In this document: positions 9,657 through 48,022 of the stretch, piece after piece
Position numbering within the stretch: position 1 is the first letter of the stretch
How the letters are laid out: each line of letters starts with the position of its first letter
Assembly: GCA_018654745.1 (NCBI GenBank)
Contig: JABILA010000006.1
Coordinates: forward strand, 18,598 to 82,597
Length of the DNA stretch: 64,000 nucleotides
Source: Alphaproteobacteria bacterium
Lineage (GTDB): Bacteria > Pseudomonadota > Alphaproteobacteria > UBA2966
Direction of reading: 5' to 3'
Translations under genes and position numbers: made by a program
Notes under the pieces: model-generated
Databases searched by the model: none
What the model was told of the DNA's origin: nothing
What the model saw: the letters and a program-made list of their open reading frames with translations, nothing else

Positions 9657-9679
9657 GCAAACAACTCAAGATTAGAAGA

Positions 9680-9710: not shown

Positions 9711-9728
9711 CATTTTGAACGCCGGAAG

Positions 9729-10919
9729 TTATGTCGATTGTACCTGTGGATCAAAGGCGATGAAGTCATAGATCGCAGCCTCGCCAGCCTCGGGCGGCGG
9801 AGGGTAGATCAGTTTTTCATTGATGTTCCGCTTGAGTGTTTTTGCCTCTTCTCCGGTTTTGGAAACTTCACGCTCCCACCCCGTTGTGAAAACGGCACCC
9901 ATAGGGCCCAGGTCCATACAGGTCACATAACGTTCCTGCTGATATTTTCGCATGGCCTTATTCGTTAAATCCCGCACAGCATTATGCCCGGCGTGCTGAC
10001 CCAGCTTGAGCGCATGTTGGCAGGACATCATCGAGACGTGCTGATCATCCGTCATGGCCCTGGCGACATCCCCGGCAACGAACACAGAAGGGAAATCGTC
10101 GAGTTTCAGGAATTCGTTTACAGCAAGCCTTCCGGTTTCGTCCAACGGCGTATCAAAACATCTGGTCAGTGGACTGGCTTCAAGACCGGTTGCGAAGATC
10201 ACCGTGGACGTTTTGATAACTTCGCCGCTTTCCAATGTCAGGCCTTGCGCATCAAGGGACGTTACTGAAACGCCTGTTTTCACCTCAATCGAACAGCTTG
10301 CCAGGGTTGAATTAATTATTGGCCTGGCACTGTCACCCAATCCCTCTCCGACATCCGCTGCCTGGTCGAGCAGGACAATCCTTGCACTTTTCCCAAATTG
10401 GCCCCGTAGTTCTGTTGCTGTTTCAATACCTGTAAAACCGGCACCCACAACCACAAAGGTCGAAGAAGCTTCACAGCTATCCTTATCCAGATTGCCAAGA
10501 TGCTTATCAAGCCTGGCCGCCCCTTCATAACTGTCGTTGTCAAATCCGTATTGCAGAGCGCCTGGAATGGGCAATTTGCGCAATTGACTACCGGTGGCAA
10601 GGATGAGGCTGTCCCATGACAGGTTTTGGTCGCCGTCATTGTTTTGCAGGTTCAGCATCTTTGTGGATGGATCAATGTTTGAGACTTCGGCAACCCTGAA
10701 CCCGACATCGATGGCCGCCAATAGCGGCGACAGGGGAACCCGCATTTCTTCCTTTGCCCCTTGATAAAGTCGGGGACGAATGACCAAAGCCGGGTCTTTG
10801 CTGATCAAGGTTATTGCCATTTCTTGTGCCGATAGACCCTGGCGGTTGCGCTCGGCTGCAGCACTCATGGCCGCCCACACACCGGCGAACCCACCACCCA
10901 CAATCACGATATTTTTCAT
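9729..10919 (-). CDS. FAD/NAD(P)-binding oxidoreductase, type II NADH dehydrogenase (NDH-2)-like
   Basis: 396 aa. Two Rossmann dinucleotide motifs (IVIVGGGFAGVWAA and FVVVGAGFTGIE). Confidence 0.75.
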   Translation of the reverse strand: MKNIVIVGGGFAGVWAAMSAAAERNRQGLSAQEMAITLISKDPALVIRPRLYQGAKEEMRVPLSPLLAAIDVGFRVAEVSNIDPSTKMLNLQNNDGDQNLSWDSLILATGSQLRKLPIPGALQYGFDNDSYEGAARLDKHLGNLDKDSCEASSTFVVVGAGFTGIETATELRGQFGKSARIVLLDQAADVGEGLGDSARPIINSTLASCSIEVKTGVSVTSLDAQGLTLESGEVIKTSTVIFATGLEASPLTRCFDTPLDETGRLAVNEFLKLDDFPSVFVAGDVARAMTDDQHVSMMSCQHALKLGQHAGHNAVRDLTNKAMRKYQQERYVTCMDLGPMGAVFTTGWEREVSKTGEEAKTLKRNINEKLIYPPPPEAGEAAIYDFIAFDPQVQST

Positions 10920-10980
10920 TTCTTCTGCTCCGTCAATTAATCATTGCCAGCGATTACAACATTTGCAAAAATGAAAATCT

Positions 10981-11028
10981 ATATGCAATTTATGCAATTG
11001 GATTCGCAAATATGCAATTTACAAACAA
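10981..11028. promoter_or_regulatory. tripled ATGCAATT(T/G) direct repeats in the divergent NDH-2/LysR intergenic region (candidate LysR operator)
   Basis: ATATGCAATTT-ATGCAATTG-GATTCGCAAATATGCAATTT. The last copy overlaps the LysR start codon. Confidence 0.35.
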
Positions 11029-11935
11029 ATTGTCCTGGGACGACTACCGATATGTGTTGGCTATATTCAGAGCACAGGGGGTAACAGGTGCTGCGGCCGA
11101 TATGGGTGTGAACGTATCAACTGCTTTTCGGCGGTTGGACAAAATCGAAGCCATTGTAAGAACGATGCTGTTTGATCGCCAGCGCGGCGGGTACGTGCCG
11201 ACAGCGGCTGGACAGGAAGTTGTCCGGGCTGCAGAGATCATGGAGCAAGCGGCATTTTCTGCCGATCGCACTGTCAGCGGTCATGATCAGGACCTGACCG
11301 GTGAATTGCGTATTACAGCAACCGAAACCATGGCTGTTTGTTTTCTGACCCGGCACATGAAATCGTTTCGGCAAAAGCATCCTGGCCTGACGGTAAATAT
11401 CAGCAGCGAGAACCGGGTTCTCAGCCTGGCCGAGCGAGAAGCCGACATCGCCCTGAGGCCCAGACGCCCGACAGACGAAGCCCTGGTTGGCCGCAAGATC
11501 GCGAATTTACGCTGGGGGATATATGGACGCTCTGACCGGATAAAGGAAATTCCCGGAACAAAGAAACTGAAGGACCTGTCTGACCTTGCGGGGCAACAAT
11601 TCGTTGTCTGGGACGGTGGGGCGCTGGCGAAAGAAACTGAAGACTGGATGGTCGACAATATTCCGGACGTCGACCTGGTGCTTCGATCAAGCAGTCTGAT
11701 TACCAATGCCCAGGTCGCGGCAACAGGGGCTGCCCTGACATTGCTGCCTTGCATCGTTGGCACGATCTGGCAAGATCTTGAGCCTGTCATCAGTCCGTTA
11801 AAAGACAACGAGAAATCCGGCGAACTCTGGCTGGCCTTTCATGAAGACATGCGTCACAACGCCCGCGTCCGGGCACTTGTTGAACATATAGCCGAGGCAG
11901 CATCAGAAGACACCGCTTTGTTTGAGGGTCGCTGA
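11012..11935 (+). CDS. LysR-family transcriptional regulator
   Basis: Start moved to Met 11012 (ORF track 10814). N-terminal HTH (LSWDDYRYVLAIFRAQGVTGAAADMGVNVSTAFRRL) plus a LysR substrate-binding domain. Divergent from the NDH-2 gene. Confidence 0.8.
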   Translation: MQFTNKLSWDDYRYVLAIFRAQGVTGAAADMGVNVSTAFRRLDKIEAIVRTMLFDRQRGGYVPTAAGQEVVRAAEIMEQAAFSADRTVSGHDQDLTGELRITATETMAVCFLTRHMKSFRQKHPGLTVNISSENRVLSLAEREADIALRPRRPTDEALVGRKIANLRWGIYGRSDRIKEIPGTKKLKDLSDLAGQQFVVWDGGALAKETEDWMVDNIPDVDLVLRSSSLITNAQVAATGAALTLLPCIVGTIWQDLEPVISPLKDNEKSGELWLAFHEDMRHNARVRALVEHIAEAASEDTALFEGR

Positions 11936-12027: not shown

Positions 12028-12792
12028 ATGAAAAAAGTTGTTGTCGTCACCGGCGCCGCGCGCGGTATTGGCCTCGCGACGTCTAAAAAATTCCTCGCCG
12101 AAGGCTGGCAGGTTATCATGATCGATATTGATGGCGCAGTCCAAACCACGGCCAGAAATTCACTCGACGCGGATGACCTTACACTGGCAATTGAATGTGA
12201 TGTCTCGGAACCAGAGCAGGTTACACTTGCTGTCGAAGAAGGCCTCGCCAGGTTTGGCCGGATCGATGCCCTGGTGAACAATGCCGGCATCGCCGTCTTC
12301 AAGCCTGTTGTTGAAACCAGTTTCGAAGAATGGTCGCGTGTTCTGGCCGTAAACCTGAACGGCCCTTTCATCTGTACCCAGGCTTGTGTTCCGGCGATGA
12401 TGGCCAATGGTGGCGGCAGCATTGTCAATATTACCTCTATCTCTGGCACCCGGGCATCGATGTTGCGCGTCGCCTATGGCACCAGCAAAGCCGCCTTGAT
12501 GCATTTGACGAAACAACAAGCGGCAGAACTTGGCAATCATGGCATCAGGGTCAACGCCGTCTCCCCCGGTCCGGTCGACACAGCCATGGCAAAGGAAGTC
12601 CATACTGCGGATATACGCGCTGATTATCATGACGCCATCCCTTTGAACCGTTACGGCACCGAAGAAGAACTGGCCGAAGCTGTGTATTTTCTGTCCAGTG
12701 ACAAGGCCAGCTATATCAATGGTCACACCCTGAATGTGGATGGTGGCTTTGCCGCCACCGGCATTGGACTTCCGAGTATTCGCACGACTTGA
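12028..12792 (+). CDS. SDR family oxidoreductase
   Basis: MKKVVVVTGAARGIGLA (TGxxxGxG), NNAG, YGTSKAAL (YxxxK). Confidence 0.8.
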   Translation: MKKVVVVTGAARGIGLATSKKFLAEGWQVIMIDIDGAVQTTARNSLDADDLTLAIECDVSEPEQVTLAVEEGLARFGRIDALVNNAGIAVFKPVVETSFEEWSRVLAVNLNGPFICTQACVPAMMANGGGSIVNITSISGTRASMLRVAYGTSKAALMHLTKQQAAELGNHGIRVNAVSPGPVDTAMAKEVHTADIRADYHDAIPLNRYGTEEELAEAVYFLSSDKASYINGHTLNVDGGFAATGIGLPSIRTT

Positions 12793-13069
12793 CGCAGTAT
12801 CGCCTGTCGCTTTGGCCGATCAGAAATCGCTGATCTGGCTGAGCAGTTTTGCATAGAAAATGTCAAAAATGGGCTGATAAGGCCCTCTGAAGTCATCAAA
12901 TCAACCTGAATCTGACTTTTTGACCCACGAATGATCATTTCGTGGGGGGCTGATTCCGTGAACAATTCAATATAGTTACCGCACTGCAGCGTAATATTAA
13001 GTAATATTATTCGCTTTATTAAATATTATTTATTGACACATTAGATTTTGCCAGCCTATCCTCCTGCCC

Positions 13070-13093
13070 GAAATCGATTTCAGGTCCTGAAAT
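13070..13093. promoter_or_regulatory. overlapping perfect palindromes GAAATCGATTTC / ATTTCAGGTCCTGAAAT upstream of the sugar ABC operon (candidate operator)
   Basis: The sequence is self-complementary. It lies about 190 nt upstream of the SBP start in a 490-nt AT-rich intergenic region that also contains a TTGACA hexamer at 13033-13038. Confidence 0.3.
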
Positions 13094-13284
13094 TTATTTC
13101 AGTCGGCAACGCAAAAATAACAGTCCCTGGTTCAGACCGCATTGCCGATCAAAACAAAGGAATTTTGAACCAGGGGGGGTTAAGCGAAATTTATCGAAGG
13201 GCGTGCCGGGCTGGCCAAGGGGAAGTTACCAATCAACCGGTTCTGCACGCAGCCAACAGGCAAATTTACAACAGGAGATTAATC

Positions 13285-14295
13285 ATGAGTATTAAAAAAG
13301 CACTTCTTGGCGCAACAGTCGCGCTGGTGGCTGGACTGGCCACACAATCTGCAACCGCTGGAACCAAATTCGCATGTGAGCCGGGCGAAACCTACATCAT
13401 GAACGTGATGGTTTCGAGCCACCCATACTGGGTGCCTGTCTATCAGGGCTACAAACAGGCAGCACAGGCCATGGGCTGTGAAGTCATTTTCTCAGGCACA
13501 CCTGACTATGACATCACCAAGCAAATCGCTTCTTTCGAACAGGATCTGGCCAAGAAGCCTGCCGGCATCCTGTTGCACCCGATGAATGCTGACCCGTTCA
13601 TTGAGCCGATTAACCGCGCCATCAAAAACGGCACTCAGGTCGTGACTTTTGCGGCAGATTCGCCCAAATCAAACCGGGTTTCCTACATCACTTCCGACAA
13701 CCTCGCCGAAGCCAAATATGCGGCCGACGAAATCGCCGGTCTGATGGGCAAAAAAGGTGAGTATGGTGTTCTGGAAAATCCAGGTCAGTCAAACCATGAC
13801 TTGCGCGTCACAGCCTTCATCGCCTACATGAAGAAAAACTACCCGGACATGAAACTGGTTGGCCGTCAGGCAACAAACCAGGATGCGTCCAAAGCTTATA
13901 CTGCAGTATCATCCATGATCCAGGCCAACCCGAAACTTGGCGCGCTGTGGATCCCTGAAGCTGGTTCTGCTGAAGGTGCTGTTGCAGCCGTTCTGGAAGC
14001 AAAAGCAAAAGTCATCATCATGCATGCTGACGTTACACCCGTAACGCTGGAGCACATCAAAGCCGGTAACATCCACAAGGCCTTGAACCCGAACCAGGGC
14101 ATGCAAGGTTACATGGGTTTCATGCTGACTTTCATGGCCACACGTTCCGGCCTGATCGACCCCTTCAACGACTACAAGCGTACAGGCTTCAACCCGATGG
14201 GCGTGCCTTTTGTTGACAACGGTTTCGCCGTCATCACCAAAGCCAATGCCGACGATTTTGAACTCGGTACATACATGAAGGGTCGCTCTCAGTAA
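13285..14295 (+). CDS. sugar ABC transporter periplasmic substrate-binding protein (periplasmic-binding-protein type I fold)
   Basis: Start moved to Met 13285, with AGGAGA RBS 7 nt upstream. Signal peptide (MSIKKALLGATVALVAGLATQSATA) followed by a ribose/galactose-type SBP body. Confidence 0.8.
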   Translation: MSIKKALLGATVALVAGLATQSATAGTKFACEPGETYIMNVMVSSHPYWVPVYQGYKQAAQAMGCEVIFSGTPDYDITKQIASFEQDLAKKPAGILLHPMNADPFIEPINRAIKNGTQVVTFAADSPKSNRVSYITSDNLAEAKYAADEIAGLMGKKGEYGVLENPGQSNHDLRVTAFIAYMKKNYPDMKLVGRQATNQDASKAYTAVSSMIQANPKLGALWIPEAGSAEGAVAAVLEAKAKVIIMHADVTPVTLEHIKAGNIHKALNPNQGMQGYMGFMLTFMATRSGLIDPFNDYKRTGFNPMGVPFVDNGFAVITKANADDFELGTYMKGRSQ

Positions 14296-14456
14296 GCGAC
14301 TTCTTTCGACCGGACTGCTGTCCGCCGGACTTGAACTTCCTCCCTGTAGTTCAATCTGGCGGGCAGCAACCCTCCCCCCTTTATCCATTTACATAGTTCG
14401 CGACTTCGGCAGCGATGTTGTCTCCGCGCGAACTTTGCAAATCGAAAGTCAGGGCC

Positions 14457-16016
14457 ATGTCACCGCAAACAGTGTTGAAAATTTCGAAAATCAGCAAATC
14501 GTTCGGCGCCACGCAGGCCCTGAACGCGGTTGATTTTGAACTCCGCACCGGCGAAATCCACGCCCTGGCCGGAGAGAATGGCGCTGGCAAATCGACGCTG
14601 ATGAACATCATTGACGGCATTCATCAACCGGACAGCGGCGACATCTATATCCACGGGAAAAAGGTCAATATCTCGTCGCCGGCAGAAGCCCAGCAAATGG
14701 GCATAGGGTTTGTTCATCAGGAAATCGCCCTGTGTCCCGATATCACCGTGGCAGAAAATATCTTCATGGCGCAAACCAACGCCAGCAAATCCATCCTGAT
14801 GAATTACAGTGATCTTCACACAAAGGCCCGTGAGGTCTTTGCACAATTAAGCCCCATTGATCCGGGAACACTGGTCAAGAATCTTTCAATTTCCAACCAG
14901 CAACTCGTTGAGATCGCCAAGGCCCTGACGCTTGATTGTCGCATCCTGATTCTGGATGAACCAACTGCGGCACTGACGGAGACCGAAGCGCAGGTTTTGT
15001 TCAGAATCATGAAAAACCTGACCGCCAATGGCATTTCGATCATTTACATCTCTCATCGCATGGTCGAAATTTTTGAAAACTGTGACCGTGTTTCTGTCTT
15101 CCGGGATGGCCAGCATATCGTCACCAATGACGTGGCCGACATCACGCCCGATGACGTCGTTAACAGTATGGTCGGACGTGTTATCGACAATCTTTATCCA
15201 CCCAAACAATCAGACGCTGAGGTGACTGGCGAGGTCATTCTGAAAGTTGACAATTTCTGTGAAGCCAGTCGTTTCAGGAACGTCTCCTTCAACGTCAATC
15301 GCGGTGAAATCCTGGGGATGGCCGGATTAATCGGGGCTGGCCGCAGTGAAATTGCCAAGGGGATCTGCGGTCTGGAAGGCGAAGCCGTCACCGGCGATTT
15401 ATCGCTGGAAGACCAACCCATGGAAATCAGGAACTATCAGGACAGCATTGCCAATGGCATGGTCTATCTATCCGAAGATCGCAAAGGCGATGGTGTTTTT
15501 CTTGATCTCTCAATCGCCGCCAATATCTCGGCTTTGTCAGTTGAGCAAGTTTCCACGAACCTGGGCATTGTCGATAATGCCCGGGAAGCCAGCCAGGCAC
15601 TGACACTCGGGGAACGACTGAACCTCAAATACGGACACATCAATCACCCGGTGTCTTCCTTAAGCGGCGGCAACCAACAAAAAGTCGCCATCGCCAAAAT
15701 GTTGTCGGTCAATCCGAAGGTGATCTTCCTGGATGAGCCGACCCGCGGCGTCGATGTTGGTGCCAAATCCGAAATTCACAAAATCCTGCGCGACCTGGCC
15801 CGCGATGGTGTGGGCATCATCGTTATTTCTTCAGAGCTGCCGGAACTGATCGGCCTGTGTGATCGCGTCATGGTCATCCGGGATGGGATCATCAGTGGTG
15901 AAGTCGACGGCGATCAGATGACGGAAGAAAACATCATGCATCTGGCATCAATCGCCCAGACAGAAGCGCTGGCGAGCACACGACCAGAGCAATATAAAAC
16001 GGGGACACCATTATGA
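14457..16016 (+). CDS. sugar ABC transporter ATP-binding protein with duplicated ATPase domains
   Basis: Two Walker A sites (GENGAGKST, plus a degenerate [10 protein letters not shown]) and signature LSGGNQQK. Typical of RbsA/MglA-type ATPases. Confidence 0.85.
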
Positions 16017-17050
16017 GTACTCTAGAAGCGACCCTCACTGCTGGTCCAGGACAACCAGGCCAATCAGGACAACCGGAGCACAGACAGGACGTCAGTGCCA
16101 TGGCCCGGTTAAAGCGCATTGCAAGCATGCGCGAAACCGGCCTGATCGTTATTATCGCAATCCTTTTCATCGTGATGTCTTTTGCTTCTCCCTATTTTCT
16201 GACATGGGTGAACATGCGAGCCATGACCATGGCTTTTGCGGTTGAAGGTATTGTCGTTGTCGGCATGACCATCTTGCTGATTTCGGGCGGCATTGATCTG
16301 TCCGTGGGGTCTGTAGTGACTTTTGCCATGGTCCTTGCTGGTTGGTTATTTCTGAACGGCGTCGATCCGTGGACGGCCTCGGCGATTACGATTGTCGCCT
16401 GTGCAGGTGTTGGTGGGGCCATGGGCTGGTGTGTGACCCGGATCGGGCTGCATCATTTTATTGTCTCATTGGCTTTCATGGTGATCGCCCGTGGTGCCTG
16501 TTTGCTGATTACCCAAGGTCGCCCGTTGGGCCTGTATACCTTGCCCGCGGAGTTCAAGTTTATTGGTCAGGGCGCCATCGGCCCTGTCCCCTTTGTCATA
16601 ATATTGTTTGTCGTGTTGGTTATCGTCTTCGACTTCATGCTGCGCCGAACAACAATTTTCCGGAAGGTATTCTACACAGGCAGCAACGAAAAAGCGGCAG
16701 CCTATTCCGGTATTCGAACCAAGAAGGTGGTCTTCCTGTCGACCGTTCTATGTTCGACCCTTTGTGGCATCGCAGGCGTAATCTATATGGCGCGCTTCGC
16801 GTCTGCACCGCCGCATTTTGGTCTTGGCATGGAATTGAACGTCATTGCGGCAGCGGTCATCGGGGGCGCCAGTCTGAACGGCGGCGTCGGCACAATCCTG
16901 GGTGCCATTCTCGGCGCTGTGTTGCTTTCGGTCGTGACCAGTTCGCTGGCCCTGCTGGATGTCTCGGTCTACTGGCAGGATATCATTCGCGGCTCAATTC
17001 TTCTGGCTGCGGTATCCTTTGACCACATGCTGAACAAGAAAAAAGCCTGA
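16013..17050 (+). CDS. sugar ABC transporter permease (RbsC/branched-chain type)
   Basis: ATGA overlap with the upstream ATPase gene. Multi-TM hydrophobic protein of 345 aa. Confidence 0.85.
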
Positions 17051-17070
17051 TCAGTAGCGACGACCAGATT

Positions 17071-18039
17071 ATGACTGATGTTCAAACATACGAATCGGCC
17101 CGACAGATTTACCGCGTCTTGATGATGCATTATGTCGAGCAAATGAAGCAGTCCGATATTGCTGTCGAAATGAAACTGTCGACGGCCAAGGTCAATCGCC
17201 TGATCAAGCAAGGCCGCGATCAGGGTATGCTTGAAATTTCGGTGAACACGCCGTGGCAGCCACAATTTGATCTGGAAAACCGCATCGCTGATGTCAGTGG
17301 CCTGGTTGACGCCGTCATCACGCCAACCCTGTCAGAGCAAACCGACATTGTTCTGAAGTCTGTTGGCCAGGCTGCCGCTTTGTACTTACTGGAAAACCTG
17401 AAGGACGGGGACACGATTTGTATCTCTGGTGGTCGCGGCGTCAGCGCTGTCATTGAGGCCCTGAGGCCGGAGAGGAAATACGACGTAACCGTTGTTCCGG
17501 CAACCGGAGGCGTGCAAGGCAAGCTTTATACAGACGTCAATTACGTTGCCGCACAGATGGCTGAAAAGCTGGGCGGTACGGCCTTCCAGATCCATGCGCC
17601 CTTGTTTGCAGAAACAGCCGAACAAAGAGACATGTTGCTTGCCATGAGCCAGGTGAAGGAAGTTCTTGATCGTGCCCGTGAAGCAACGATAGCCATCGTC
17701 GGTATTGGCTCCATCTTGCCAGAAAGTTCCAGTTTCTTTGATCTATATGAAGGCGCGGAGCAAGACCGGAAAAGCATCGTGGGCGGTGGCGCAGTTGCAG
17801 AAATGCTTGCCCATCTGGTCGACCGGCGCGGCAGTCCAGGTCCCTATGACCTGAATGACCGCATCATTGGGTTAACGCTGCCAGAAATGCACAAAATCCC
17901 ACTATCAATCGGCGTCGCCGCTGGTGCCGACAAGGCCGTACCAATCCACTGCGTTCTGCAAGGACAACATATCAAGGTGCTTGTTTCAGACGAAGCAACC
18001 GCCAACCTGGTTTTGAAAAAATATCATGAGGAAAAGTAG
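17071..18039 (+). CDS. SorC/DeoR-family sugar-binding transcriptional regulator
   Basis: N-terminal HTH (QSDIAVEMKLSTAKVNRLIKQGR) plus a C-terminal sugar-phosphate-binding domain. Sits in the same operon as the transporter and catabolic genes. Confidence 0.75.
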   Translation: MTDVQTYESARQIYRVLMMHYVEQMKQSDIAVEMKLSTAKVNRLIKQGRDQGMLEISVNTPWQPQFDLENRIADVSGLVDAVITPTLSEQTDIVLKSVGQAAALYLLENLKDGDTICISGGRGVSAVIEALRPERKYDVTVVPATGGVQGKLYTDVNYVAAQMAEKLGGTAFQIHAPLFAETAEQRDMLLAMSQVKEVLDRAREATIAIVGIGSILPESSSFFDLYEGAEQDRKSIVGGGAVAEMLAHLVDRRGSPGPYDLNDRIIGLTLPEMHKIPLSIGVAAGADKAVPIHCVLQGQHIKVLVSDEATANLVLKKYHEEK

Positions 18040-19056
18040 ATGACTGATACCGCCACTATGGAAAGACCATCTGTCACCACGCGCAAGCTTGGGCAAACAG
18101 ATATCGACGCATCTGTTGTCGGCCTGGGAACCTGGGCCATTGGCGGCTGGATGTGGGGTGGAACGGACGAGGACCTGTCCATCAAGGCGATCAAGGCAGC
18201 CCTTGATACCGGGGTATCCCTGATAGATACAGCCCCTGCGTACGGTATGGGCCGATCAGAAGAAATCGTCGGCAAAGCAATTGAAGGCCGTCGCGACGAA
18301 GTTGTCCTGGCAACCAAATGCGGTCTGGTCTGGCATACCCAACAAGGCAATCATTTTTTCGACAATGATGACAAGCCGGTCCATCGGCATCTCGGCGCTG
18401 ACTCCATTCGCTATGAGCTGGAACAAAGCCTGAAACGTCTACGTACTGATTACATCGACCTTTACATCACGCATTGGCAAGACCCGACAACACCTGTTGC
18501 CGAAACCATGGGTACGTTGATGGAACTGAAGGCAGAAGGAAAGATCAGGGCCATCGGCGTCAGCAACGTCAGCCCCGATGACCTGAAATCCTATGTGGCG
18601 GAAGGCCCTGTGGACGCCATTCAGGAGAAATACAGCATGCTGGACAGGGATATCGAGGATACCTTGCTTCCGCTGTGTGCAGAACATGGCATTTCAACGT
18701 TAAGCTACTCTTCTCTGGCCCTGGGGTTGTTGTCCGGCAAGATCGGGCCTGACCGTACATTTGACGGGGATGACCTTCGCATTGGCGACCCACGCTTCAG
18801 TCCGGCCAATCGAGAGAAAATTGCTTCGCTGTTTGACGAAATCCGGCCCATTGCAAAAAGTCTGGATGCAACCCTGGCGCAACTGGTAATTGCCTGGACA
18901 TTATCGCAACCCGGCATTACGTATTCTTTATGTGGTGCCCGCAATCCTGAGCAAGCATCGGAAAACGCTGTCGCCGGGTCCCTGGTGTTGTCTCCTGATC
19001 AAATTACCAAAACGGGTGCGGCTGTTGATCGATACCTCAAGGATATGGACGCCTAG
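18040..19056 (+). CDS. aldo/keto reductase
   Basis: 338 aa. AKR motifs (GLGTWAIGG...IDTAPAYG). Confidence 0.85.
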   Translation: MTDTATMERPSVTTRKLGQTDIDASVVGLGTWAIGGWMWGGTDEDLSIKAIKAALDTGVSLIDTAPAYGMGRSEEIVGKAIEGRRDEVVLATKCGLVWHTQQGNHFFDNDDKPVHRHLGADSIRYELEQSLKRLRTDYIDLYITHWQDPTTPVAETMGTLMELKAEGKIRAIGVSNVSPDDLKSYVAEGPVDAIQEKYSMLDRDIEDTLLPLCAEHGISTLSYSSLALGLLSGKIGPDRTFDGDDLRIGDPRFSPANREKIASLFDEIRPIAKSLDATLAQLVIAWTLSQPGITYSLCGARNPEQASENAVAGSLVLSPDQITKTGAAVDRYLKDMDA

Positions 19057-19082
19057 AGAAGATCCGGACCGAGGAAACAAAC

Positions 19083-20825
19083 GTGGCAAATCTGCAAAGG
19101 GCAAAACAACTCACGAACCTGAAGGGCAATACGAACCCTTCGGTTCTGATTGTTGGTGGCGGCATCAATGGCATCGGCCTCTATCGCGACCTGGCCCTGC
19201 AGGGTGTCGATGTGTTGCTGGTGGAGCAAAAGGATTTTTGCAGCGGCGCAAGTGCAGCCCTTTCGCGCATGGTTCACGGCGGCTTGCGTTATCTTGAGCA
19301 AGGCGAATTCAGGCTGGTGCGGGAATCTCTGGAGGAGCGAAATATCCTTCTACGCAATGCCCCGCACTATGTAAAACCCTTGCCGACAACCATTCCTGTA
19401 TTTGATTATGCTTCCGGCATCATGAACGCCCTGCTGCGTTTCCTCGGGCTTTCGGAAAAACCCGGCAGGCGGGGGGCCCTGGTCATCAAGCTTGGTCTGA
19501 CCTTGTATGACTTTTTTACCCGAACCCGACGCGAAACGCCGACCCATAACTTCCAGGGGCAAAAGGAAACTTTTCTGCGCTGGCCGGAATTGCATCCTGA
19601 CGTCAAATGCAGCGCAACCTATTTCGATGCCTGGGTGACCTATCCCGAACGTCTGGGCCTGGAGATGGTTATGGATGTTGCACAAACCGATACAGCGGCC
19701 ATGGCCGTCAATTACATGTCTGTCGCATCGTCAGATGGTAAGTCGGTCACCTTGCGCGATGAAGTATCCGGGGAAGAGATTTCGGTTGAGCCCGGCATTG
19801 TCGTGAACGCCACCGGGGCCTGGATTGATCTTACCAACGGTGCCCTTCAGGGTGGTGACAATGAACCCGCAAAGAAAATGGTAGGGGGCACCAAAGGCTC
19901 TCACCTGATCATCAGGAACGACACTTTATTAAAGGCCGTCGGTCAGCAAATGGTTTATTACGAAAACCAGGACGGCCGTATCTGCATACTATTTCCCTAT
20001 TTTGGCAATGTTCTGGTGGGATCAACAGACATCAGGATTGATGACCCCACAGATGTGCGCTGCGAAGAGGAAGAACGCGACTACATCCTGCAGTCCCTGG
20101 CGTTTGTTTTTCCAAAAATTGTCATTCAACCCGACGAAATTCTCTATACATTTTCCGGCGTTCGCCCTCTGGAATACAGTGACAGCTCTGTGACCGGTGG
20201 CATCTCGCGTGACCATTCCTGCCGGACCTTGCCTGATTCACCACAGCGTGATTTTCCTGTCCTGTGCATGATTGGTGGCAAGTGGACCACTTTTCGCGCC
20301 TTCGGTGAGCAGGTGGCAGATAAGATTCTAGACATCCTGAACAGCAAACGGAAAAGTCACACGAATAGTATTCCCATCGGCGGGGGCAAGGACTTTCCGC
20401 GCGACCATGGTGATTTTGAAAACTGGATTTCTGATCTGAGAGATCGATCAGGTATGGATGAGGCCAGGTTGCGCAGGTTAATCGACAGATATGGCAGCAA
20501 GGCAGAAAGCCTGATCGGCTATATGAAACAATCAACAGACAAGGCGCTGATCAGCGACCCTTCCTATAGCCAGCGTGAATTGCTGCATATTATCGAACAG
20601 GAAAACGTTACCTGCCTTGAGGATATATTGCTGCGGCGTACGTCCCTTGCCATTTCCGGAGGCCTTTCCACGGCCCTGATTGATGAAGTTCTGGCCATTA
20701 TGGCGAACGCACGCGGCTGGAACCAGACCCGGACCACATCGGCGCGTCAGGAATTTCTTGCACGGCTTTCAAAACAGCATGCCGTCACGCTTGAGGCCGC
20801 CGAACCACAACCCGTTAACGCATAA
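19083..20825 (+). CDS. FAD-dependent glycerol-3-phosphate dehydrogenase-like (GlpD/EryB-like) polyol-phosphate dehydrogenase
   Basis: 580 aa. N-terminal FAD motif (VLIVGGGINGIGLYRDLALQGVDVLLVEQ) and the GlpD C-terminal domain. Confidence 0.8.
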   Translation: MANLQRAKQLTNLKGNTNPSVLIVGGGINGIGLYRDLALQGVDVLLVEQKDFCSGASAALSRMVHGGLRYLEQGEFRLVRESLEERNILLRNAPHYVKPLPTTIPVFDYASGIMNALLRFLGLSEKPGRRGALVIKLGLTLYDFFTRTRRETPTHNFQGQKETFLRWPELHPDVKCSATYFDAWVTYPERLGLEMVMDVAQTDTAAMAVNYMSVASSDGKSVTLRDEVSGEEISVEPGIVVNATGAWIDLTNGALQGGDNEPAKKMVGGTKGSHLIIRNDTLLKAVGQQMVYYENQDGRICILFPYFGNVLVGSTDIRIDDPTDVRCEEEERDYILQSLAFVFPKIVIQPDEILYTFSGVRPLEYSDSSVTGGISRDHSCRTLPDSPQRDFPVLCMIGGKWTTFRAFGEQVADKILDILNSKRKSHTNSIPIGGGKDFPRDHGDFENWISDLRDRSGMDEARLRRLIDRYGSKAESLIGYMKQSTDKALISDPSYSQRELLHIIEQENVTCLEDILLRRTSLAISGGLSTALIDEVLAIMANARGWNQTRTTSARQEFLARLSKQHAVTLEAAEPQPVNA

Positions 20826-20834
20826 GGAAAGAAA

Positions 20835-21677
20835 ATGTATCTCGCAAAGAAGGTTCGGATGAACCGTTTGTTTGGCAAAGGAAAGTGTCTGGATGTCGCC
20901 ATAGATCATGGTGTCTGTAACGAACCATCATTTCTGGACGGACTGGAAGATATTGCCAAGGTTGTCGGGCAATTGGTTGAAGCCGGACCTGATGCTATCC
21001 AGATGAATTACGGCCAGTCAGATTTACTGCAAAACATTGATGGCAAGAAAAAACCAGCCCTTGTCATGCGCACAGACATGGGCAACCCCTACAACAAGGT
21101 TGCCCACCGCGTGATGTGGTCCCTGATGCAAAATGCGGAGGAGCCCATTTTGGCCGCCCTGCAAATGGATGCAGCTTGTGTCGTCATCAATCTGTTCATG
21201 GTGCCGGATGAACCCGATCTTTTCCGGCAATGCGTCAAGAATATTTCCACCATCCGCAATGAATGTGAAAAATACCACATGCCCTTGATGATCGAACCTC
21301 TGGTCATGCAGTCCAATTCGGAACGCGGCGGTTACATGGTGGACGGCAATACAGATGACATTGTGACATTGGTCCGCCTCGCCCGTGAAATGGGGGCCGA
21401 CATTGTCAAAGCCGACCCAACTAATGAAGCAGCAGATTTCCACAAGGTTGTCGAAGCCGCACGCTGTCCTGTCCTGGTACGGGGCGGCGGCAAGGAGGAT
21501 CTGAAAACCGTATTCAGGAAATCACATGCCCTGATGGAACAGGGGGCCATGGGCATGGTCTATGGTCGCAATATTTATCAGCATGATAATCCCTCTCGCG
21601 TTGTCAAATCCCTGATGGCCATGATCCATGACGGTGCCACAGGAGATGACGCCTGGGCCTTGTACGAAGCGTCCTGA
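20835..21677 (+). CDS. class I aldolase of the DhnA/LsrF/AroA' (DeoC/LacD) family
   Basis: N-terminus (RLFGKGKCLDVAIDHGVCNEP) matches the AroA'/LsrF pattern. Schiff-base Lys region GADIVKAD. 280 aa. Confidence 0.7.
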   Translation: MYLAKKVRMNRLFGKGKCLDVAIDHGVCNEPSFLDGLEDIAKVVGQLVEAGPDAIQMNYGQSDLLQNIDGKKKPALVMRTDMGNPYNKVAHRVMWSLMQNAEEPILAALQMDAACVVINLFMVPDEPDLFRQCVKNISTIRNECEKYHMPLMIEPLVMQSNSERGGYMVDGNTDDIVTLVRLAREMGADIVKADPTNEAADFHKVVEAARCPVLVRGGGKEDLKTVFRKSHALMEQGAMGMVYGRNIYQHDNPSRVVKSLMAMIHDGATGDDAWALYEAS

Positions 21678-21705
21678 CCACAGGCAGCAACGGAGACGTA
21701 TCAGG

Positions 21706-23211
21706 ATGGGATCATATTTACTGGGACTGGATGCCGGAAACACTGTCACCAAGGCAGTGTTGTTTGATACGGCTGGCAACCAGGTCGCCTCCCACGCTTG
21801 TCCTGGCACGTCTCAACATCCTGAACCTGGCCACGTTGAACGCTCCTTGCCCGATCTTTGGCAACAGGCCAGCGAGGCCATCAGGATTTGTATCGAACGG
21901 TCTGGAGTTGATCCGTCGCAAATCCTGGGCGTCGGCTGCAGCGGGCACGGTAACGGCCTCTATCTGCTGGACAAACAAAACCTGCCATTGCTGGGTATCC
22001 AGTCGCTCGACAGTCGTGCGGTCGAAACAGTTGATGAATTTGCAGCGGACGGGCGCGATGATCTGATTTATGACATCTGCCTGCAAAAACCGTGGCCCTC
22101 ACAGACGGCGACCCTTCTGGCCTGGCTAAAACGCCATGCCCCCGACATTTACGCCCAAACCGGGACAGCGTTTTTGTGCAAGGACTATCTGAGATTTTGT
22201 CTGACCGGGACAATCGGCAGTGACTATTCGGATATGAGTGGCTGCGGCCTGCTGCGCCTTCCGTCTCTGGAATATGATCAGGAATTGCTGACGCACTATG
22301 GTCTGGAGGATTGCCCGAACCTGCTGCCGCCCCTGTCTCAATCGACAGATATTATTGGCAAGGTCACGCCAGAAGCGGCCGAACAAACCGGCTTGCAGGC
22401 CGGCACGCCGATGGTCGCAGGTCTCTTTGATATTGTTGCAAGTGCGCTTGGTGCAGGCACCACACAACCTGGTCAGGCCTCCATCGTCGCAGGGACCTGG
22501 AGCATCAATCAGGTGGTTGTTGAACAACCCGTTTCCGATCCCTCAATCTTCATGGCCGCGGCAATTTCCCCTGACAGGTTTGTTGAAGCCGAAGCCAGTG
22601 CCACCTCTGCGACAAACCTTGCCTGGATGGTACGCGAATTTTTGACAGATAATGACATGCAGGCGGATGAGAGCACTGTACTGGCGCATTGCAATGAACT
22701 GGTTGCTGGCGTCGAGTTAGTTCCAGGTTTGCCGATCTTTCATCCCTTTATATATGGCTCTGGTAGCAATGGTTCAGCCCGGGCCGGTTTTTACGGTATC
22801 GGCGGCTGGCACACACGCGCGCACATGATCCACGCGATTTATGAAGGCGTGGTTTTTGGACATCTTCAGCACATAGCAAAGTTGAGAAACGCCGGTGTCG
22901 ACTTTAACAGCGCCACCTTGTCAGGTGGTGCATCACGCAGCCCGATCTGGCCGCAGATGTTTGCGGACATCCTGGATGTTGAAGTTACGGTTTCCGAGTG
23001 TACCGAGACAGGTGCCAAAGGCGCCGCCATTGCGGCAGGTGTCGGACTTTCCCTGTTCGCGGACCTGACTGCGGGTACTGCAGCTATGTCACAAGGCGAT
23101 CACAGCTATTATCCTGATCCTCTTAAACAGCAGATTTATTGGCAACGCTTTGAAATATTTGAAAAATTGTGTGCTTCCATGACCGCCATCTGGGAAAAAC
23201 TGGCGGAATAA
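21706..23211 (+). CDS. FGGY-family carbohydrate/polyol kinase
   Basis: Start moved to Met 21706 (GGAG RBS). N-terminal LGLDAGNTVTKAVLFD (FGGY N-domain) plus the C-domain. Confidence 0.8.
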   Translation: MGSYLLGLDAGNTVTKAVLFDTAGNQVASHACPGTSQHPEPGHVERSLPDLWQQASEAIRICIERSGVDPSQILGVGCSGHGNGLYLLDKQNLPLLGIQSLDSRAVETVDEFAADGRDDLIYDICLQKPWPSQTATLLAWLKRHAPDIYAQTGTAFLCKDYLRFCLTGTIGSDYSDMSGCGLLRLPSLEYDQELLTHYGLEDCPNLLPPLSQSTDIIGKVTPEAAEQTGLQAGTPMVAGLFDIVASALGAGTTQPGQASIVAGTWSINQVVVEQPVSDPSIFMAAAISPDRFVEAEASATSATNLAWMVREFLTDNDMQADESTVLAHCNELVAGVELVPGLPIFHPFIYGSGSNGSARAGFYGIGGWHTRAHMIHAIYEGVVFGHLQHIAKLRNAGVDFNSATLSGGASRSPIWPQMFADILDVEVTVSECTETGAKGAAIAAGVGLSLFADLTAGTAAMSQGDHSYYPDPLKQQIYWQRFEIFEKLCASMTAIWEKLAE

Positions 23212-23225: not shown

Positions 23226-25160
23226 TCAGCTCTGTGCCGCCTTCTTCCTGTTCAGTTGATAGTTTTCGAATTTCGGTGACCGGGTCATCGACCAGTAATC
23301 AACCAACCGCCATGGCATGACCGAAAATACGCGCCCGGCTTTGTTCCGGTAATAGGTCGACATGCCGGGATGAGACCAGACCATTTGCTCATGTTCGGCA
23401 TCTACTTTGCGCACATAATCATCCAATGCTTCCGGTTTGACATCGATCGATGCCAGATCCTCGGTGACAATCTTCTCAAGGCAAACAGCAATATAATTGG
23501 CCTGACATTCAGCGGTGAAAATTGCGCTGCCCCCATGCCCCAATCCGGTATTTGGCCCTTGCATACAAAACAGATTGGGGAAGTCCGGGACCGTTATCCC
23601 GATATAGGCTGTGGGGTTCTCGTCGGCCCAGGCGTCCTCCAGTCGACGACCACCCAGTCCCGCAATATTCAAACGTGACGCCATTTCCGTGATCTTGAAC
23701 CCTGTCGAATAAATGACAACATCAGCCGGATGGTGCTGGTCATCACAGGTCTTTATCCCGGTTTGATCAAAATGCTCAATGCCCTCCGTAACCAGTTCGA
23801 CATTGTCTTTTCGCAGCGATTTATACCAGCTGTTATCCAGCAGGATGCGCTTGCCATAGGGTGGATAGGTCGGTGTACATTTTCCAATCAGGTCAGGACG
23901 GCCTTCCAGTTCCTGTTCGATATGGCGGGTCATCTCCTGACGATGGCGGTCGTTGGCCCTGTTCAGGGAACGTGCGGGATGCGGCCATGTCGGATCAATT
24001 CGAAGTGATGGTAACAGACCATCGCCATAGCGCCACAACATTGTAAATCGATACCAGGCGGCATAAAGCGGTACGTTCTTCAGCAGCCATTGTGCACCTT
24101 CGGGAAGGGCATCCTGATAACGGGGAATGGGGCGCACCCATTGGGCGCTGCGTTGATATACGGCAAGAGACGCGACATCGTTCGCAATCTCCGGCACGAT
24201 TTGCATGGCCGATGCGCCGGTCCCGATAATCGCGACATGTTTGCCTTTCAAGTCCGTTCCCGACGGCCATCGCGCCGTGTGAAAACTTGTGCCCTGAAAG
24301 TCATCGGCACCTTTCAACGATGGCATGGAAACCTGGCTAAGCTGTCCAATGGCGCTGACAACCGCCATGGCCTCAAGCCGCTCTTCGCCATCGTTCGTTG
24401 ACAATGTGACCTGCCAGCAAGACTTTTCCTGATCCCAGAAAGCCGCGGTTACCCGGGTCTCGAACCGTATCGCCTGGCGTAAATCCAGTTCTTCGGAAAT
24501 GCACTCAAGATAATCCTGAATCTCTGATCGCGGTGAAAAATTCCGGCTCCAGGAATATCGGTTGCCAAAAGAATATGAATAGGCGTGATTAGGCGTATCA
24601 ACAGCGCAACCAGGATATGTGTTTTCAAACCAGGTTCCGCCAACCTCAGTGTTTCGCTCGACGGTAATATAGTTGATGCCCATTTTTTGTAGCCGGTATC
24701 CAAGCGCCAGGCCACTTGCACCGGCACCGACAATAACGACTGGCCGGGTCTGTTTCTCATGTCCCGATGTGACCTCGACAGAATCTGTAGCCTCCGGCGT
24801 AAATCCCATTTGCTCGCGCATCATGGGGGCATATTCCGGTGGCACGGCTTCGCTGAGACAAGTACTCATCATCTCAACCATCAGATCATCACCAGGAACC
24901 TCAATCGCAGTAGCCTGATCAGCCCGTGACAATAGTTCAACCGCAGCAGCCCTGATCTCAGATTGAATATGTTCAGGAAAACCAGCCGCTTCATCTGCAA
25001 TCAAACTGACATCACGCGCAGGGCGAAAAGGCTCAGATAACCAACGACGATCACCTGATATCTGAAACAAGACCATCAGCAATACCCGTAAATCAGCAGA
25101 TTGAACTGCCGTTGCTAACGCAGCAGTATACCGCACTTTCTGATCGAGCATATTTGTCAC
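23226..25160 (-). CDS. Baeyer-Villiger (class B flavoprotein) monooxygenase with N-terminal extension (HAPMO-like)
   Basis: 644 aa. Rossmann VVIVGAGASGL, BVMO fingerprint FQGTSFHTARWP and a second GTGASA motif. About 140-aa N-terminal extension as in 4-hydroxyacetophenone monooxygenases. Confidence 0.8.
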   Translation of the reverse strand: MTNMLDQKVRYTAALATAVQSADLRVLLMVLFQISGDRRWLSEPFRPARDVSLIADEAAGFPEHIQSEIRAAAVELLSRADQATAIEVPGDDLMVEMMSTCLSEAVPPEYAPMMREQMGFTPEATDSVEVTSGHEKQTRPVVIVGAGASGLALGYRLQKMGINYITVERNTEVGGTWFENTYPGCAVDTPNHAYSYSFGNRYSWSRNFSPRSEIQDYLECISEELDLRQAIRFETRVTAAFWDQEKSCWQVTLSTNDGEERLEAMAVVSAIGQLSQVSMPSLKGADDFQGTSFHTARWPSGTDLKGKHVAIIGTGASAMQIVPEIANDVASLAVYQRSAQWVRPIPRYQDALPEGAQWLLKNVPLYAAWYRFTMLWRYGDGLLPSLRIDPTWPHPARSLNRANDRHRQEMTRHIEQELEGRPDLIGKCTPTYPPYGKRILLDNSWYKSLRKDNVELVTEGIEHFDQTGIKTCDDQHHPADVVIYSTGFKITEMASRLNIAGLGGRRLEDAWADENPTAYIGITVPDFPNLFCMQGPNTGLGHGGSAIFTAECQANYIAVCLEKIVTEDLASIDVKPEALDDYVRKVDAEHEQMVWSHPGMSTYYRNKAGRVFSVMPWRLVDYWSMTRSPKFENYQLNRKKAAQS

Positions 25161-26194: not shown

Positions 26195-27214
26195 CTACAA
26201 GGTCTGGCGATACTTTTCTGCATCCCAGTTCACCAGCTGTTTTTCTTCCTCTTCCGTGAGGTAACGAACGGCTGCAGATGCGGGCACGCGACGCACGACC
26301 TCAGCCAGCGCTTTCAGCATTTCCACGCCGCCAGCGACAAGGGATTTGTGGTGCACAACGCCTACACCCTTCAGGGCGACAGCTTTGGGCCGCAGGGGAT
26401 CGCCCGACGGAGATTGGACAAACTCTGCAAGTTCACCAAGGGTTTGCGTACCTTCGATACCACTGCCCAGGAAAACAACATGATCAGGATAGAGCGAACC
26501 ACCGCAGGCCAGATCAAATCCACTGGCGACCAACCCGGACTGATGGATTATCTCTGCATCGGCCACAACAAAATCTGTCCCGGCGCAAGCATCCGACAAA
26601 ATCTGACGGGACGGTTCGATAATCGGGACTGCCTTTGTTTCAAGTCTGTCTTCAACATCCTGCATTAATTCCCGGGCTTCAACGGGGCTATCTCCACCAA
26701 CGACCAGTCCGTGGTTCTGGATCACCAGAACGTCGCATTGTTTTATCGCCAGTTGTTTGGCGACAAGCCGGGTAAGCGGCATACCTGGCTGGGAATAAGG
26801 GATAAATCCCCAGCGAATGCCATCAAGCTTCCTGGCCAAAATATCTGCGGTATTCTGTTGAACGGCGTGGACAATTGCGTTGATGGAATGAGTGTGAAAA
26901 ACCACTCGATGATGCATAAGGGAATGTAGCGTCGTTTCGATAGAGGGGCGTAACCCGACCGGGCCAATAGATAATGCGGCACCTTCAACGGGATCATCAC
27001 AATTGTCTTCGATGTTCCGGTTCACCCGGGCTGGATCAACAGCAACAAAAACATCATCTGTGTCTGCATGTTGCAACCATTTCCCCGACGCCTTAACCCA
27101 CATCAGGTTGCCGTCAATCTTGATAGACGTATTCCCGCCAGCGCCCTGGATCAGCAAAGGATCAGCCCCCAGGGCCTGTGACACACTTAAGAAATCTGGA
27201 GAAATATCAACCAT
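26195..27214 (-). CDS. class II aldolase/adducin-family protein (stand-alone YuxG N-domain-like)
   Basis: 339 aa. GAGGNTSIK and HTHS zinc-ligand region. Paralogous to the N-domain of the downstream aldolase-SDR fusion. Confidence 0.65.
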   Translation of the reverse strand: MVDISPDFLSVSQALGADPLLIQGAGGNTSIKIDGNLMWVKASGKWLQHADTDDVFVAVDPARVNRNIEDNCDDPVEGAALSIGPVGLRPSIETTLHSLMHHRVVFHTHSINAIVHAVQQNTADILARKLDGIRWGFIPYSQPGMPLTRLVAKQLAIKQCDVLVIQNHGLVVGGDSPVEARELMQDVEDRLETKAVPIIEPSRQILSDACAGTDFVVADAEIIHQSGLVASGFDLACGGSLYPDHVVFLGSGIEGTQTLGELAEFVQSPSGDPLRPKAVALKGVGVVHHKSLVAGGVEMLKALAEVVRRVPASAAVRYLTEEEEKQLVNWDAEKYRQTL

Positions 27215-27230
27215 TTACAGTTCTTTCAAA

Positions 27231-48020: not shown

Positions 48021-48022
48021 CG

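Follow-up and report, generated by a model that had tools for sequence, protein, structure and literature searches.

A conserved eight-gene operon of an alphaproteobacterium with a candidate kinase, GlpD-like flavoenzyme and aldolase route for sugar or polyol catabolism

A 64,000-nt stretch of an alphaproteobacterial genome (assembly GCA_018654745.1, contig JABILA010000006.1) was analyzed. This stretch is called the window below, and positions are window coordinates unless another locus is named. At 13285–23211 on the + strand, the list of open reading frames (ORFs) and Pfam searches gave eight successive ORFs in the order substrate-binding protein (SBP), ATPase, permease, SorC regulator, aldo-keto reductase (AKR), GlpD-like dehydrogenase, aldolase and kinase. 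We propose, with moderate confidence, that they specify a substrate-inducible catabolic route for a sugar or sugar alcohol that is neutral, probably has a C5 or C6 skeleton and may be deoxygenated. As to the overall scheme, the chances appear about even, judged from the sequences, that the kinase would act first, the GlpD-like enzyme would oxidize its product and the aldolase would cleave the result.

A more specific form of this route is put forward tentatively. An alditol derived from an aldose (or a 2-deoxy-hexitol or 2-deoxy-aldonate) would be phosphorylated, and a respiratory flavoenzyme of the GlpD family would convert it to a ketose-1-phosphate, replacing an isomerase or a polyol dehydrogenase linked to nicotinamide adenine dinucleotide. 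A new clade of DhnA-type aldolases would then release dihydroxyacetone phosphate (DHAP) and a C2 or C3 aldehyde, which several lineages would drain through 3-hydroxypropionate or malonate semialdehyde to acetyl-coenzyme A (acetyl-CoA). Such a route would be both undescribed and widespread.

The eight genes are closely spaced and make up one operon (Table 1). The gap behind the SBP gene is 119 bp, and the others are −4, 20, 0, 26, 9 and 28 bp, with the permease start overlapping the ATPase stop by 4 nt. This spacing fits a single transcription unit. The SBP gene starts with an ATG that follows an AGGAG ribosome-binding site, and it encodes a typical signal peptide (MSIKKALLGATVALVAGLATQSATA). 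The kinase probably starts at the ATG at 21706, behind a GGAG ribosome-binding site, and not at the ORF start at 21628; its ortholog in the closest relative (L006, described below) is 501 aa long, in agreement with the later start. An original prediction for this stretch had given the same gene content, order and family assignments, and these were confirmed by the ORFs and Pfam.

Table 1. Features of the operon, its upstream spacer and the gene directly upstream (window coordinates)
Feature	Position	Strand	Evidence
SBP of a CUT2-type ATP-binding cassette (ABC) importer	13285–14295	+	Pfam Peripla_BP_4, 1.4e-53
ABC ATPase, two nucleotide-binding domains	14415–16016	+	Pfam ABC_tran, two copies
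ABC permease, single	16013–17050	+	Pfam BPD_transp_2, 7.9e-37
SorC/DeoR-type sugar-binding transcriptional regulator	17071–18039	+	Pfam Sugar-bind, 2.3e-58, and N-terminal helix-turn-helix
AKR11B-like aldo-keto reductase	18040–19056	+	Pfam Aldo_ket_red, 2.8e-70
GlpD-family dehydrogenase dependent on flavin adenine dinucleotide (FAD), start codon uncertain	19083–20825	+	Pfam DAO and DAO_C
DhnA-type class I aldolase	20835–21677	+	Pfam DeoC/LacD, 1.8e-53
FGGY-family carbohydrate kinase	21706–23211 (mechanical ORF from 21628)	+	Pfam FGGY_N and FGGY_C
Promoter-like site, TTGACA, 18-nt spacer, TATCCT	13033–13062	+	Consensus scan, 10/12 matches; pattern match only
Palindromic operator candidate 1, cGAAATCGATTTCa	13069–13082		TGAAAT-N2-ATTTCA pattern
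Palindromic operator candidate 2, TGAAATTTATTTCA	13088–13101		TGAAAT-N2-ATTTCA pattern, 19 bp from candidate 1
Classical short-chain dehydrogenase/reductase (SDR), directly upstream	12028–12792	+	Pfam adh_short; generic NCBIfam subfamily matches only

Relatives of the aldolase were encoded in 501 species genomes when one genome per species was scanned. For synteny, 85 loci were fetched from other genomes and plasmids. The complete order of the window operon was found unchanged in 69 of them, from different orders and classes. This indicated that the arrangement was not due to chance. An added GMC oxidoreductase gene was present in 58 of these 69 loci and absent from 11. The remaining loci mostly lacked at least one gene or lay on short contigs, and a few carried another ABC system. 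AKR, GlpD-like, aldolase and kinase genes made up a core that was invariant across lineages. Across alpha- and gammaproteobacteria the aldolases were 72–94% identical, and the AKRs were 62–88% identical across orthologous loci.

The hosts include Rhizobium, Sinorhizobium, Shinella, Phyllobacterium, Mesorhizobium, Devosia, Labrys, Pseudovibrio, a candidate Spongiihabitans genome, Kistimonas, Endozoicomonas, Hahella and Osedax symbionts. Symbionts of sponges, corals and bone-eating worms are among the carriers. In a Rhizobium locus (L005), the GlpD-like gene (9268–11016) and the aldolase gene (10989–11831) overlap, which suggested that the two enzymes catalyze coupled consecutive steps. The closest relative, L006, comes from the metagenome-assembled Alphaproteobacteria bacterium SI053_bin31 and has an aldolase 94% identical to that of the window. 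Its genes are ordered SDR, AKR, GlpD-like, aldolase and kinase, without the ABC transporter and SorC genes, and its downstream genes match those of the window.

The cluster is also present on symbiosis-associated megaplasmids of the two best-studied rhizobia. In Sinorhizobium meliloti 1021, the GlpD-like and aldolase genes were located at 518533–521175 of pSymB. The cluster there runs from SMb20504 (SBP) down to approximately SMb20496, as placed by neighboring genes (SMb20505, tfxG; SMb20503, ABC ATPase; SMb20507, araG-like; SMb20494, LysR; SMb20493, SDR). In Rhizobium johnstonii (formerly R. leguminosarum) 3841, it occupies 822396–833823 of pRL12 (RL_RS36690–36730). The S. meliloti genome-scale model iGD1575 includes only the ATPase of the cluster, in a generic transport role. 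Megablast of E. coli genomes with the region gave no match. Megablast of plasmids gave only short matches in the AKR gene, and these led to the syntenic loci.

Two rhizobial genes were considered as orthologs and rejected. SMb20316, a binding protein tested with polyols, belongs to a dihydroxyacetone-kinase cluster and is not the SBP ortholog. The 'putative aldolase' pRL120027 is 27% identical to the window aldolase and lies beside a PfkB kinase gene. This gene, listed in an insertion sequencing (INSeq) study, is probably L088 7904–9649 (pRL12, ~26 kb), matched by annotation and position only. The DhnA-type aldolase of L088 is partnered by the PfkB kinase and stands among Gfo/Idh/MocA and sugar-phosphate isomerase genes.

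None of the eight operon proteins reached the cut-off of an NCBIfam equivalog model. The SBP scored 82 against the allose model (cut-off 335) and 56 against the ribose model (cut-off 337), and its best relatives in PDB were CbpA (7x0g) and an arabinose-binding protein (6sw4). The best model for the ATPase was that for xylose (520 vs a cut-off of 699). The kinase scored 247 against XylB (TIGR01312, cut-off 380) and 122 against GlpK (cut-off 590), and was thus a member of neither equivalog; its best match in PDB was LsrK (5ya0, 173 bits). The AKR matched B. subtilis YhdN/GSP69 (1pz1) best, with 270 bits, followed by IolS with 197 bits, and scored 295 against the YdjG model (cut-off 550).

The GlpD-like protein also scored below the GlpD equivalogs (NF008899, 296.5 vs 360; NF009906, 258.7 vs 352) and gave about 180 bits each against PDB 3da1 and 2qcu. 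All seven positions aligned with R54, Y55, H233, T270, R317, R332 and K354 of E. coli GlpD (2qcu) were kept. We take these to be the catalytic and phosphate-contacting residues. Together with the DAO and DAO_C domains, they place the protein in the GlpD/GlpO flavoenzyme superfamily. This suggested that its substrate should end in a group resembling glycerol-3-phosphate (R-CHOH-CH2-O-P). In rhizobia, which presumably already possess glpD, the protein would be an extra paralog.

The same residues, and a GlpD model score that is fairly high at 296 bits, would also suit a scheme like that of fructose in liver, which we regard as rather unlikely. In that scheme, the FGGY kinase would phosphorylate C1 of a ketose, and the aldolase would yield DHAP and glyceraldehyde (or L-glyceraldehyde-3-phosphate). 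The AKR would reduce the latter to glycerol (or to sn-glycerol-3-phosphate, as E. coli YghZ does), and the GlpD-like protein would be a true, dedicated glycerol-3-phosphate dehydrogenase that converts the second triose back to DHAP. Relatives in AKR11B are presumably reductases of small aldehydes such as glyceraldehyde and methylglyoxal, and we take the bypass of L-glyceraldehyde-3-phosphate by YghZ and GlpD to be known chemistry. On the other hand, the cut-off of the GlpD equivalog is missed, GlpK is the family that the kinase resembles least (122 vs 590), and the AKR scored only 71 against the model for L-glyceraldehyde-3-phosphate reductase (cut-off 448). The cluster lacks a second kinase (glycerol kinase or triokinase), and a dedicated copy is not obviously needed by a host that presumably has glpD and glpK. 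The MmsA and variable alcohol dehydrogenases described below would be left unexplained.

The GlpK/GlpD pathway and the YghZ (AKR)–GlpD bypass share with the cluster an FGGY kinase, a GlpD-family flavoenzyme with the GlpD-aligned residues, and an AKR gene beside the GlpD-like gene. They differ in that the cluster has an aldolase, a sugar importer and SorC, whereas glp has GlpF and GlpR.

For the aldolase, the scores were 137 against the ADH-synthase subfamily (cut-off 241), 108 against the archaeal fructose-bisphosphate (FBP) aldolase (cut-off 430), and 124 against a further model among these and the LsrF families (cut-off 299). The best solved relative was MJ0400 (85 bits), and LsrF gave 55 bits. 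The lysine of its 'ADIVKAD' motif aligned with those of IVKT in MJ0400, AMKI in the Thermoproteus tenax FBP aldolase and IIKT in LsrF. These are presumably the Schiff-base residues K184, K177 and K203, respectively. The GGGK and GRN (GRNIYQ) motifs were also kept, and we take GG(GK) and GRN to bind phosphate in the DhnA-type fold. The DeoC/LacD domain, the aligned lysine and the two motifs were as expected for a DhnA-type class I aldolase. The specific functions of archaeal-type FBP aldolase, ADH synthase and LsrF would be assigned neither by the scores nor by the catalytic tyrosine position considered below.

A paralog of the aldolase, 49% identical to that of the window, was found on Thioclava plasmid p4 (L087 9905–17292). 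Its partners are a Gfo/Idh/MocA oxidoreductase, a D-lyxose/D-mannose-type isomerase, a PfkB kinase, an ABC importer and a LacI regulator, and the cluster looks like another sugar pathway. An isomerase and a PfkB kinase beside the paralog make up the classic layout from aldose to ketose phosphate to aldolase, which fits cleavage of a ketose phosphate by this aldolase clade.

The gene behind the kinase changed with lineage. In most alphaproteobacteria it encodes a choline-dehydrogenase-like GMC oxidoreductase (556 vs a cut-off of 605), the start of which overlaps the kinase stop by 4 nt in Phyllobacterium (L002). In Kistimonas, Endozoicomonas, Hahella and an unclassified Oceanospirillales genome it encodes an iron-type alcohol dehydrogenase (Fe-ADH), and in L008, L010 and L013 a zinc-type alcohol dehydrogenase (Zn-ADH). 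An SMP-30-type lactonase takes this place in L016, L019 and L025. Such swaps of non-orthologous alcohol or aldehyde oxidoreductases at one position would be expected if the aldolase released a small aldehyde that had to be detoxified or assimilated. E. coli uses FucO and AldA after its fuculose-, rhamnulose- and ribulose-1-phosphate aldolases.

MmsA, the CoA-acylating dehydrogenase of methylmalonate and malonate semialdehydes, followed the Fe-ADH in L039, L045 and L056 (TIGR01722, 696 bits vs a cut-off of 448), and its start overlaps the Fe-ADH stop in the first two of these. In three Devosia genomes, mmsA and a LysR regulator gene lie immediately upstream of the cluster. MmsA was thus linked to the cluster in six loci and absent from most. 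Beyond the accessory oxidoreductases and MmsA, no other recurrent flanking gene was found in the 85 loci, the remainder being lineage-specific. The linkage suggested that the small product may enter a 3-hydroxypropionate or malonate-semialdehyde branch in some lineages. Such a branch would point to a C6 substrate that carries a deoxy position; the splitting of 2-deoxy-5-keto-gluconate-6-phosphate to DHAP and malonate semialdehyde suggests itself as a parallel.

The pathway of that parallel, the end steps of myo-inositol catabolism (IolC, IolJ and IolA/MmsA), has in common with the cluster a phosphorylated 5-keto compound that gives DHAP and malonate semialdehyde, the latter consumed by MmsA. 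The AKR is a relative of IolS and YhdN, and MmsA is linked in the six loci. The inositol pathway has a PfkB kinase and a class II aldolase in place of the FGGY kinase and class I aldolase here, and IolB, IolD, IolE and IolG are absent from the cluster.

A variant of the route for an acid sugar, which we consider quite unlikely, would parallel these end steps. Either the AKR would convert a uronate (or 5-deoxy-uronate) into an L-aldonate (or 2-deoxy-aldonate) or an aldonolactone would be opened by a lactonase, and the FGGY kinase would phosphorylate C6. The GlpD-like enzyme would then give a 5-keto-aldonate-6-phosphate, the aldolase DHAP and malonate or tartronate semialdehyde, and MmsA acetyl-CoA. 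The coupling of MmsA in the three gammaproteobacterial loci and its adjacency in Devosia, the lactonases behind the kinase in three loci, the resemblance of the AKR to IolS, and the presence of gluconokinases among FGGY kinases (174 bits for the kinase) are in keeping with it. Against it, CUT2 transporters and their binding proteins generally carry neutral monosaccharides or polyols, and neither MmsA nor the lactonase is found in the window or in most loci.

In E. coli, the L-fucose, L-rhamnose and D-arabinose pathways split a ketose-1-phosphate into DHAP and a short aldehyde, as proposed here for the cluster. The aldehyde is then handled by an Fe-ADH or an aldehyde dehydrogenase, as in the gammaproteobacterial versions of the cluster. 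Those pathways rely on an isomerase and an aldolase of class II; the cluster has no isomerase, but a reductase, a flavin dehydrogenase and a class I aldolase.

The steps of the proposed neutral-sugar or polyol route would be as follows. The CUT2 ABC system would import the substrate, and the FGGY kinase would phosphorylate a terminal CH2OH to produce an R-CHOH-CH2-O-P end that mimics sn-glycerol-3-phosphate. The GlpD-like flavoenzyme would oxidize the adjacent hydroxyl, passing the electrons probably to quinone, and yield the ketose-1-phosphate. The aldolase would form a Schiff base at the keto group and release DHAP and the C2 or C3 aldehyde. The AKR may act at either end. As the first enzyme, it would reduce the imported aldose to the alditol, so that the AKR and the flavoenzyme together would replace a sugar isomerase; as the last, it would reduce the reactive aldehyde. 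The lineage-specific enzymes (GMC oxidoreductase, Fe-ADH with or without MmsA, or Zn-ADH) would process the small product further. SorC would repress at the candidate operators described below and would probably be released by a phosphorylated intermediate, by analogy with DeoR, CggR and LsrR.

The original prediction had proposed that a phosphorylated ketose made by the GlpD-like enzyme is cleaved directly. This is supported by the fixed synteny, the overlap of the GlpD-like and aldolase genes in Rhizobium, and the lineage-specific dehydrogenases and MmsA behind the kinase.

Several points weigh against the proposed route. The kept GlpD residues would fit plain glycerol-3-phosphate as the substrate equally well. 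In the aldolase, the tyrosine of 'YPRG' in MJ0400 is aligned with a serine ('SERGG'), an alignment made uncertain by indels nearby. This is presumably the catalytic tyrosine of archaeal-type FBP aldolases, and its replacement suggested that the chemistry could differ from simple aldol cleavage, as in LsrF. The role of the AKR is ambiguous between reduction of an incoming aldose to the alditol and reduction of the aldehyde product. The SMP-30-type lactonases fit a pure polyol route poorly. The 64-kb window contains no GMC, Fe-ADH, Zn-ADH or MmsA gene, which leaves the fate of the aldehyde there unexplained. Finally, no published function for SMb20496–SMb20504 or the pRL12 orthologs was found in the open-access literature.

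The operon had originally been labeled 'erythritol-type'. The label holds at the superfamily level, but not as orthology. Compared with the R. johnstonii 3841 proteins, the kinase was 26–27% identical to EryA, the GlpD-like protein 28% to EryB and the regulator 29% to EryD. The homologue cut-offs in a survey of ery loci were 46%, 65% and 44% identity, respectively (Geddes et al., PMC3599248). Homologs of EryC, TpiB (EryH) and RpiB (EryI) were not found in the 64-kb window (tblastn with R. johnstonii queries, E ≤ 1e-5). Moreover, the cluster coexists with a complete ery locus on pRL12 of R. johnstonii, and S. meliloti, which carries the cluster, has ery genes too (PMC3599248). The low identities, the lack of isomerases and this coexistence indicated that the cluster is not an ery locus.

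Like the ery loci of Brucella and Rhizobium, the cluster pairs an FGGY kinase with a GlpD-family FAD dehydrogenase that would next take a polyol phosphate as its substrate, and it has a SorC-type regulator; a CUT2 ABC importer is likewise shared with ery of Rhizobium. The difference lies in the EryC, EryH and EryI isomerases of ery and the class I aldolase and AKR of the cluster.

Beside ery on pRL12, a second set of DeoR, FGGY and GlpD-like genes was found (L086 8837–13034). Its FGGY kinase and GlpD-like protein are 39% and 43% identical, respectively, to the window pair. This pair is closer than EryA and EryB, which suggested a wider family of kinase plus GlpD-like modules. A class II fba gene beside it was dropped as support for a combination of kinase, GlpD-like enzyme and aldolase, because fba adjoins ery in Brucella too (PMC3599248) and its position is probably a matter of ery-locus synteny.

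A tetritol (erythritol or threitol) version of the route is very unlikely. The EryA-like and EryB-like enzymes would produce a tetrulose-1-phosphate, which would be cleaved to DHAP and formaldehyde instead of being isomerized to erythrose-4-phosphate. The superfamilies of EryA, EryB and EryD and an ABC importer are indeed present. However, the identities to the Ery proteins are only 26–29%, the non-Ery pair on pRL12 is closer, and such a route would be redundant with the coexisting ery genes of R. johnstonii (on the same plasmid) and S. meliloti. No gene for formaldehyde detoxification is linked, and the kinds of accessory enzyme suggest products of two or three carbons. An erythrulose-1-phosphate aldolase in a natural pathway was not found in the open-access literature.

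The lsr operon was compared in the same way. Scores against the Lsr models were all below the cut-offs (LsrB, 46 vs 384; LsrA, 438 vs 586; LsrC, 137 vs 388; LsrD, 94 vs 500; LsrK, 211 vs 528; LsrR, 123 vs 486; LsrF, 98 vs 297), and this indicated that the cluster is not an lsr operon. There is no LsrG gene in the operon and no gap big enough for one, and a single permease ORF stands against LsrC plus LsrD. Shared with lsr are the CUT2 ABC importer, the SorC-family regulator, an FGGY kinase akin to LsrK and a relative of the DHAP-releasing, DhnA-fold enzyme LsrF. The cluster differs in its one permease, the added GlpD-like and AKR genes, and an aldolase nearer to archaeal MJ0400.

The original prediction had also raised a pathway like that of autoinducer-2 (AI-2), for which no specific support was obtained. 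Here, AI-2 or a related 1-deoxy-pentulose or dione would be phosphorylated at C5 by the LsrK-like kinase, the AKR and the GlpD-like enzyme would replace LsrG and give a beta-diketone phosphate, and the LsrF-like enzyme, as a CoA-dependent thiolase, would give DHAP and acetyl-CoA. We consider this highly improbable. In its favor, no solved structure matched the kinase better than LsrK, the aldolase and the regulator show detectable kinship with LsrF and LsrR, respectively, and the aldolase, like LsrF, lacks the tyrosine of the archaeal motif. These similarities are opposed by equivalog scores that fall far short throughout, by the single permease and missing LsrG, and by the aldolase being nearer to MJ0400 (85 bits) than to LsrF (55 bits). 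In addition, S. meliloti presumably has a separate Lsr-type system.

The cluster failed membership of the ery, lsr, glp and xyl systems. Nor do the closest characterized homologs of its enzymes belong to a single well-described pathway; they come from different pathways, none at the equivalog cut-off. A search of the open-access literature found no report linking an FGGY kinase, a GlpD-like enzyme, a class I aldolase and an AKR. By analogy, the system resembles a hybrid with the front half of an erythritol pathway, the back half of a fucose/rhamnose or inositol pathway, and control like that by DeoR, LsrR or EryD. Its families are known and not mechanistically exotic; it is their combination that is absent from the characterized pathways found in this literature.

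Control by the operon's own regulator was suggested by the sequence upstream of the SBP gene. An AT-rich spacer contains the promoter-like site, about 220 nt before this gene, and the two palindromes, cGAAATCGATTTCa and TGAAATTTATTTCA, come immediately after the −10 hexamer. When up to one mismatch was allowed, TGAAAT-N2-ATTTCA was found three times in the window (0.4 expected). Of 76 orthologous loci, 58 had the core GAAAT-N2-ATTTC (10 bases, at most one mismatch) ahead of the SBP gene, a count inflated by kinship among the loci, compared with 1% of shuffled upstream regions. It was found across Rhodobacterales, Hyphomicrobiales and Oceanospirillales. The 19-bp tandem spacing recurred in L007, L014, L039 and L042, including distant genomes.

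The palindromes are likely candidate operators of the SorC protein, which is a probable repressor of the operon. Both hallmarks of an operon controlled by a SorC/DeoR-type repressor, a SorC gene within it and a conserved palindrome in the promoter region, are present. The regulator scored 156 against the B. subtilis DeoR model (cut-off 420). The third copy of the palindrome in the window (GGAAATGAATTTCA, 6925–6938, one mismatch) lies within a PAS/histidine-kinase ORF (4697–7831) and is probably a chance match. In L006, the SDR–AKR spacer (7096–7205) contains another palindrome, CCAAATAAATA-C-TATTTATTGG; TGAAAT-N2-ATTTCA was not found there.

If the proposed route is correct, it would give new specificities to four enzyme families and a function to S. 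meliloti SMb20496–SMb20504 and their homologs in about 500 species. Solving the pathway would add a carbon source and a pathway to metabolic models, iGD1575 for instance omitting the enzymes of the cluster. Four isofunctional families could replace misleading names such as 'class I fructose-bisphosphate aldolase' and 'glycerol-3-phosphate dehydrogenase'. It may also reveal a nutrient of plant or animal origin used by host-associated bacteria. Since the carriers include genetically tractable organisms (the model rhizobia), the route can be tested directly.

Upstream, the operon is flanked by the SDR gene and a LysR regulator gene. In L006, the SDR ortholog is 87% identical, and its gene adjoins the AKR gene on the upstream side, neither transporter nor regulator genes lying between them. 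The SDR is a possible accessory alcohol dehydrogenase, its membership of the operon being uncertain.

Downstream, a gene resembling flavin monooxygenases and Baeyer-Villiger monooxygenases (644 aa; 23226–25160, − strand) converges on the kinase gene, with 14 bp between the stops; it is also present in L006. A second carbohydrate-type cluster follows at 26195–35141 (− strand). It comprises a class II aldolase-like gene, a HAD hydrolase, a short FGGY-like kinase, a fusion of a class II aldolase with an SDR (651 aa), a pair resembling UPF0261 and phosphoenolpyruvate (PEP) hydrolase, an alpha/beta hydrolase and an AraC/PAS regulator. In L006, the monooxygenase-like gene is followed by ORFs similar in size and order to these, of which only the class II aldolase-like gene was confirmed by Pfam.

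Farther downstream, 37402–55003 is a region of cobalamin biosynthesis and salvage. It contains a cobT-like gene (37402–38424), cobS (38366–39181), genes for CobB/CobQ-type amidotransferases (42523–43989 and 46674–48020), a TonB-dependent receptor gene (48023–49882) and cobN (50642–55003).

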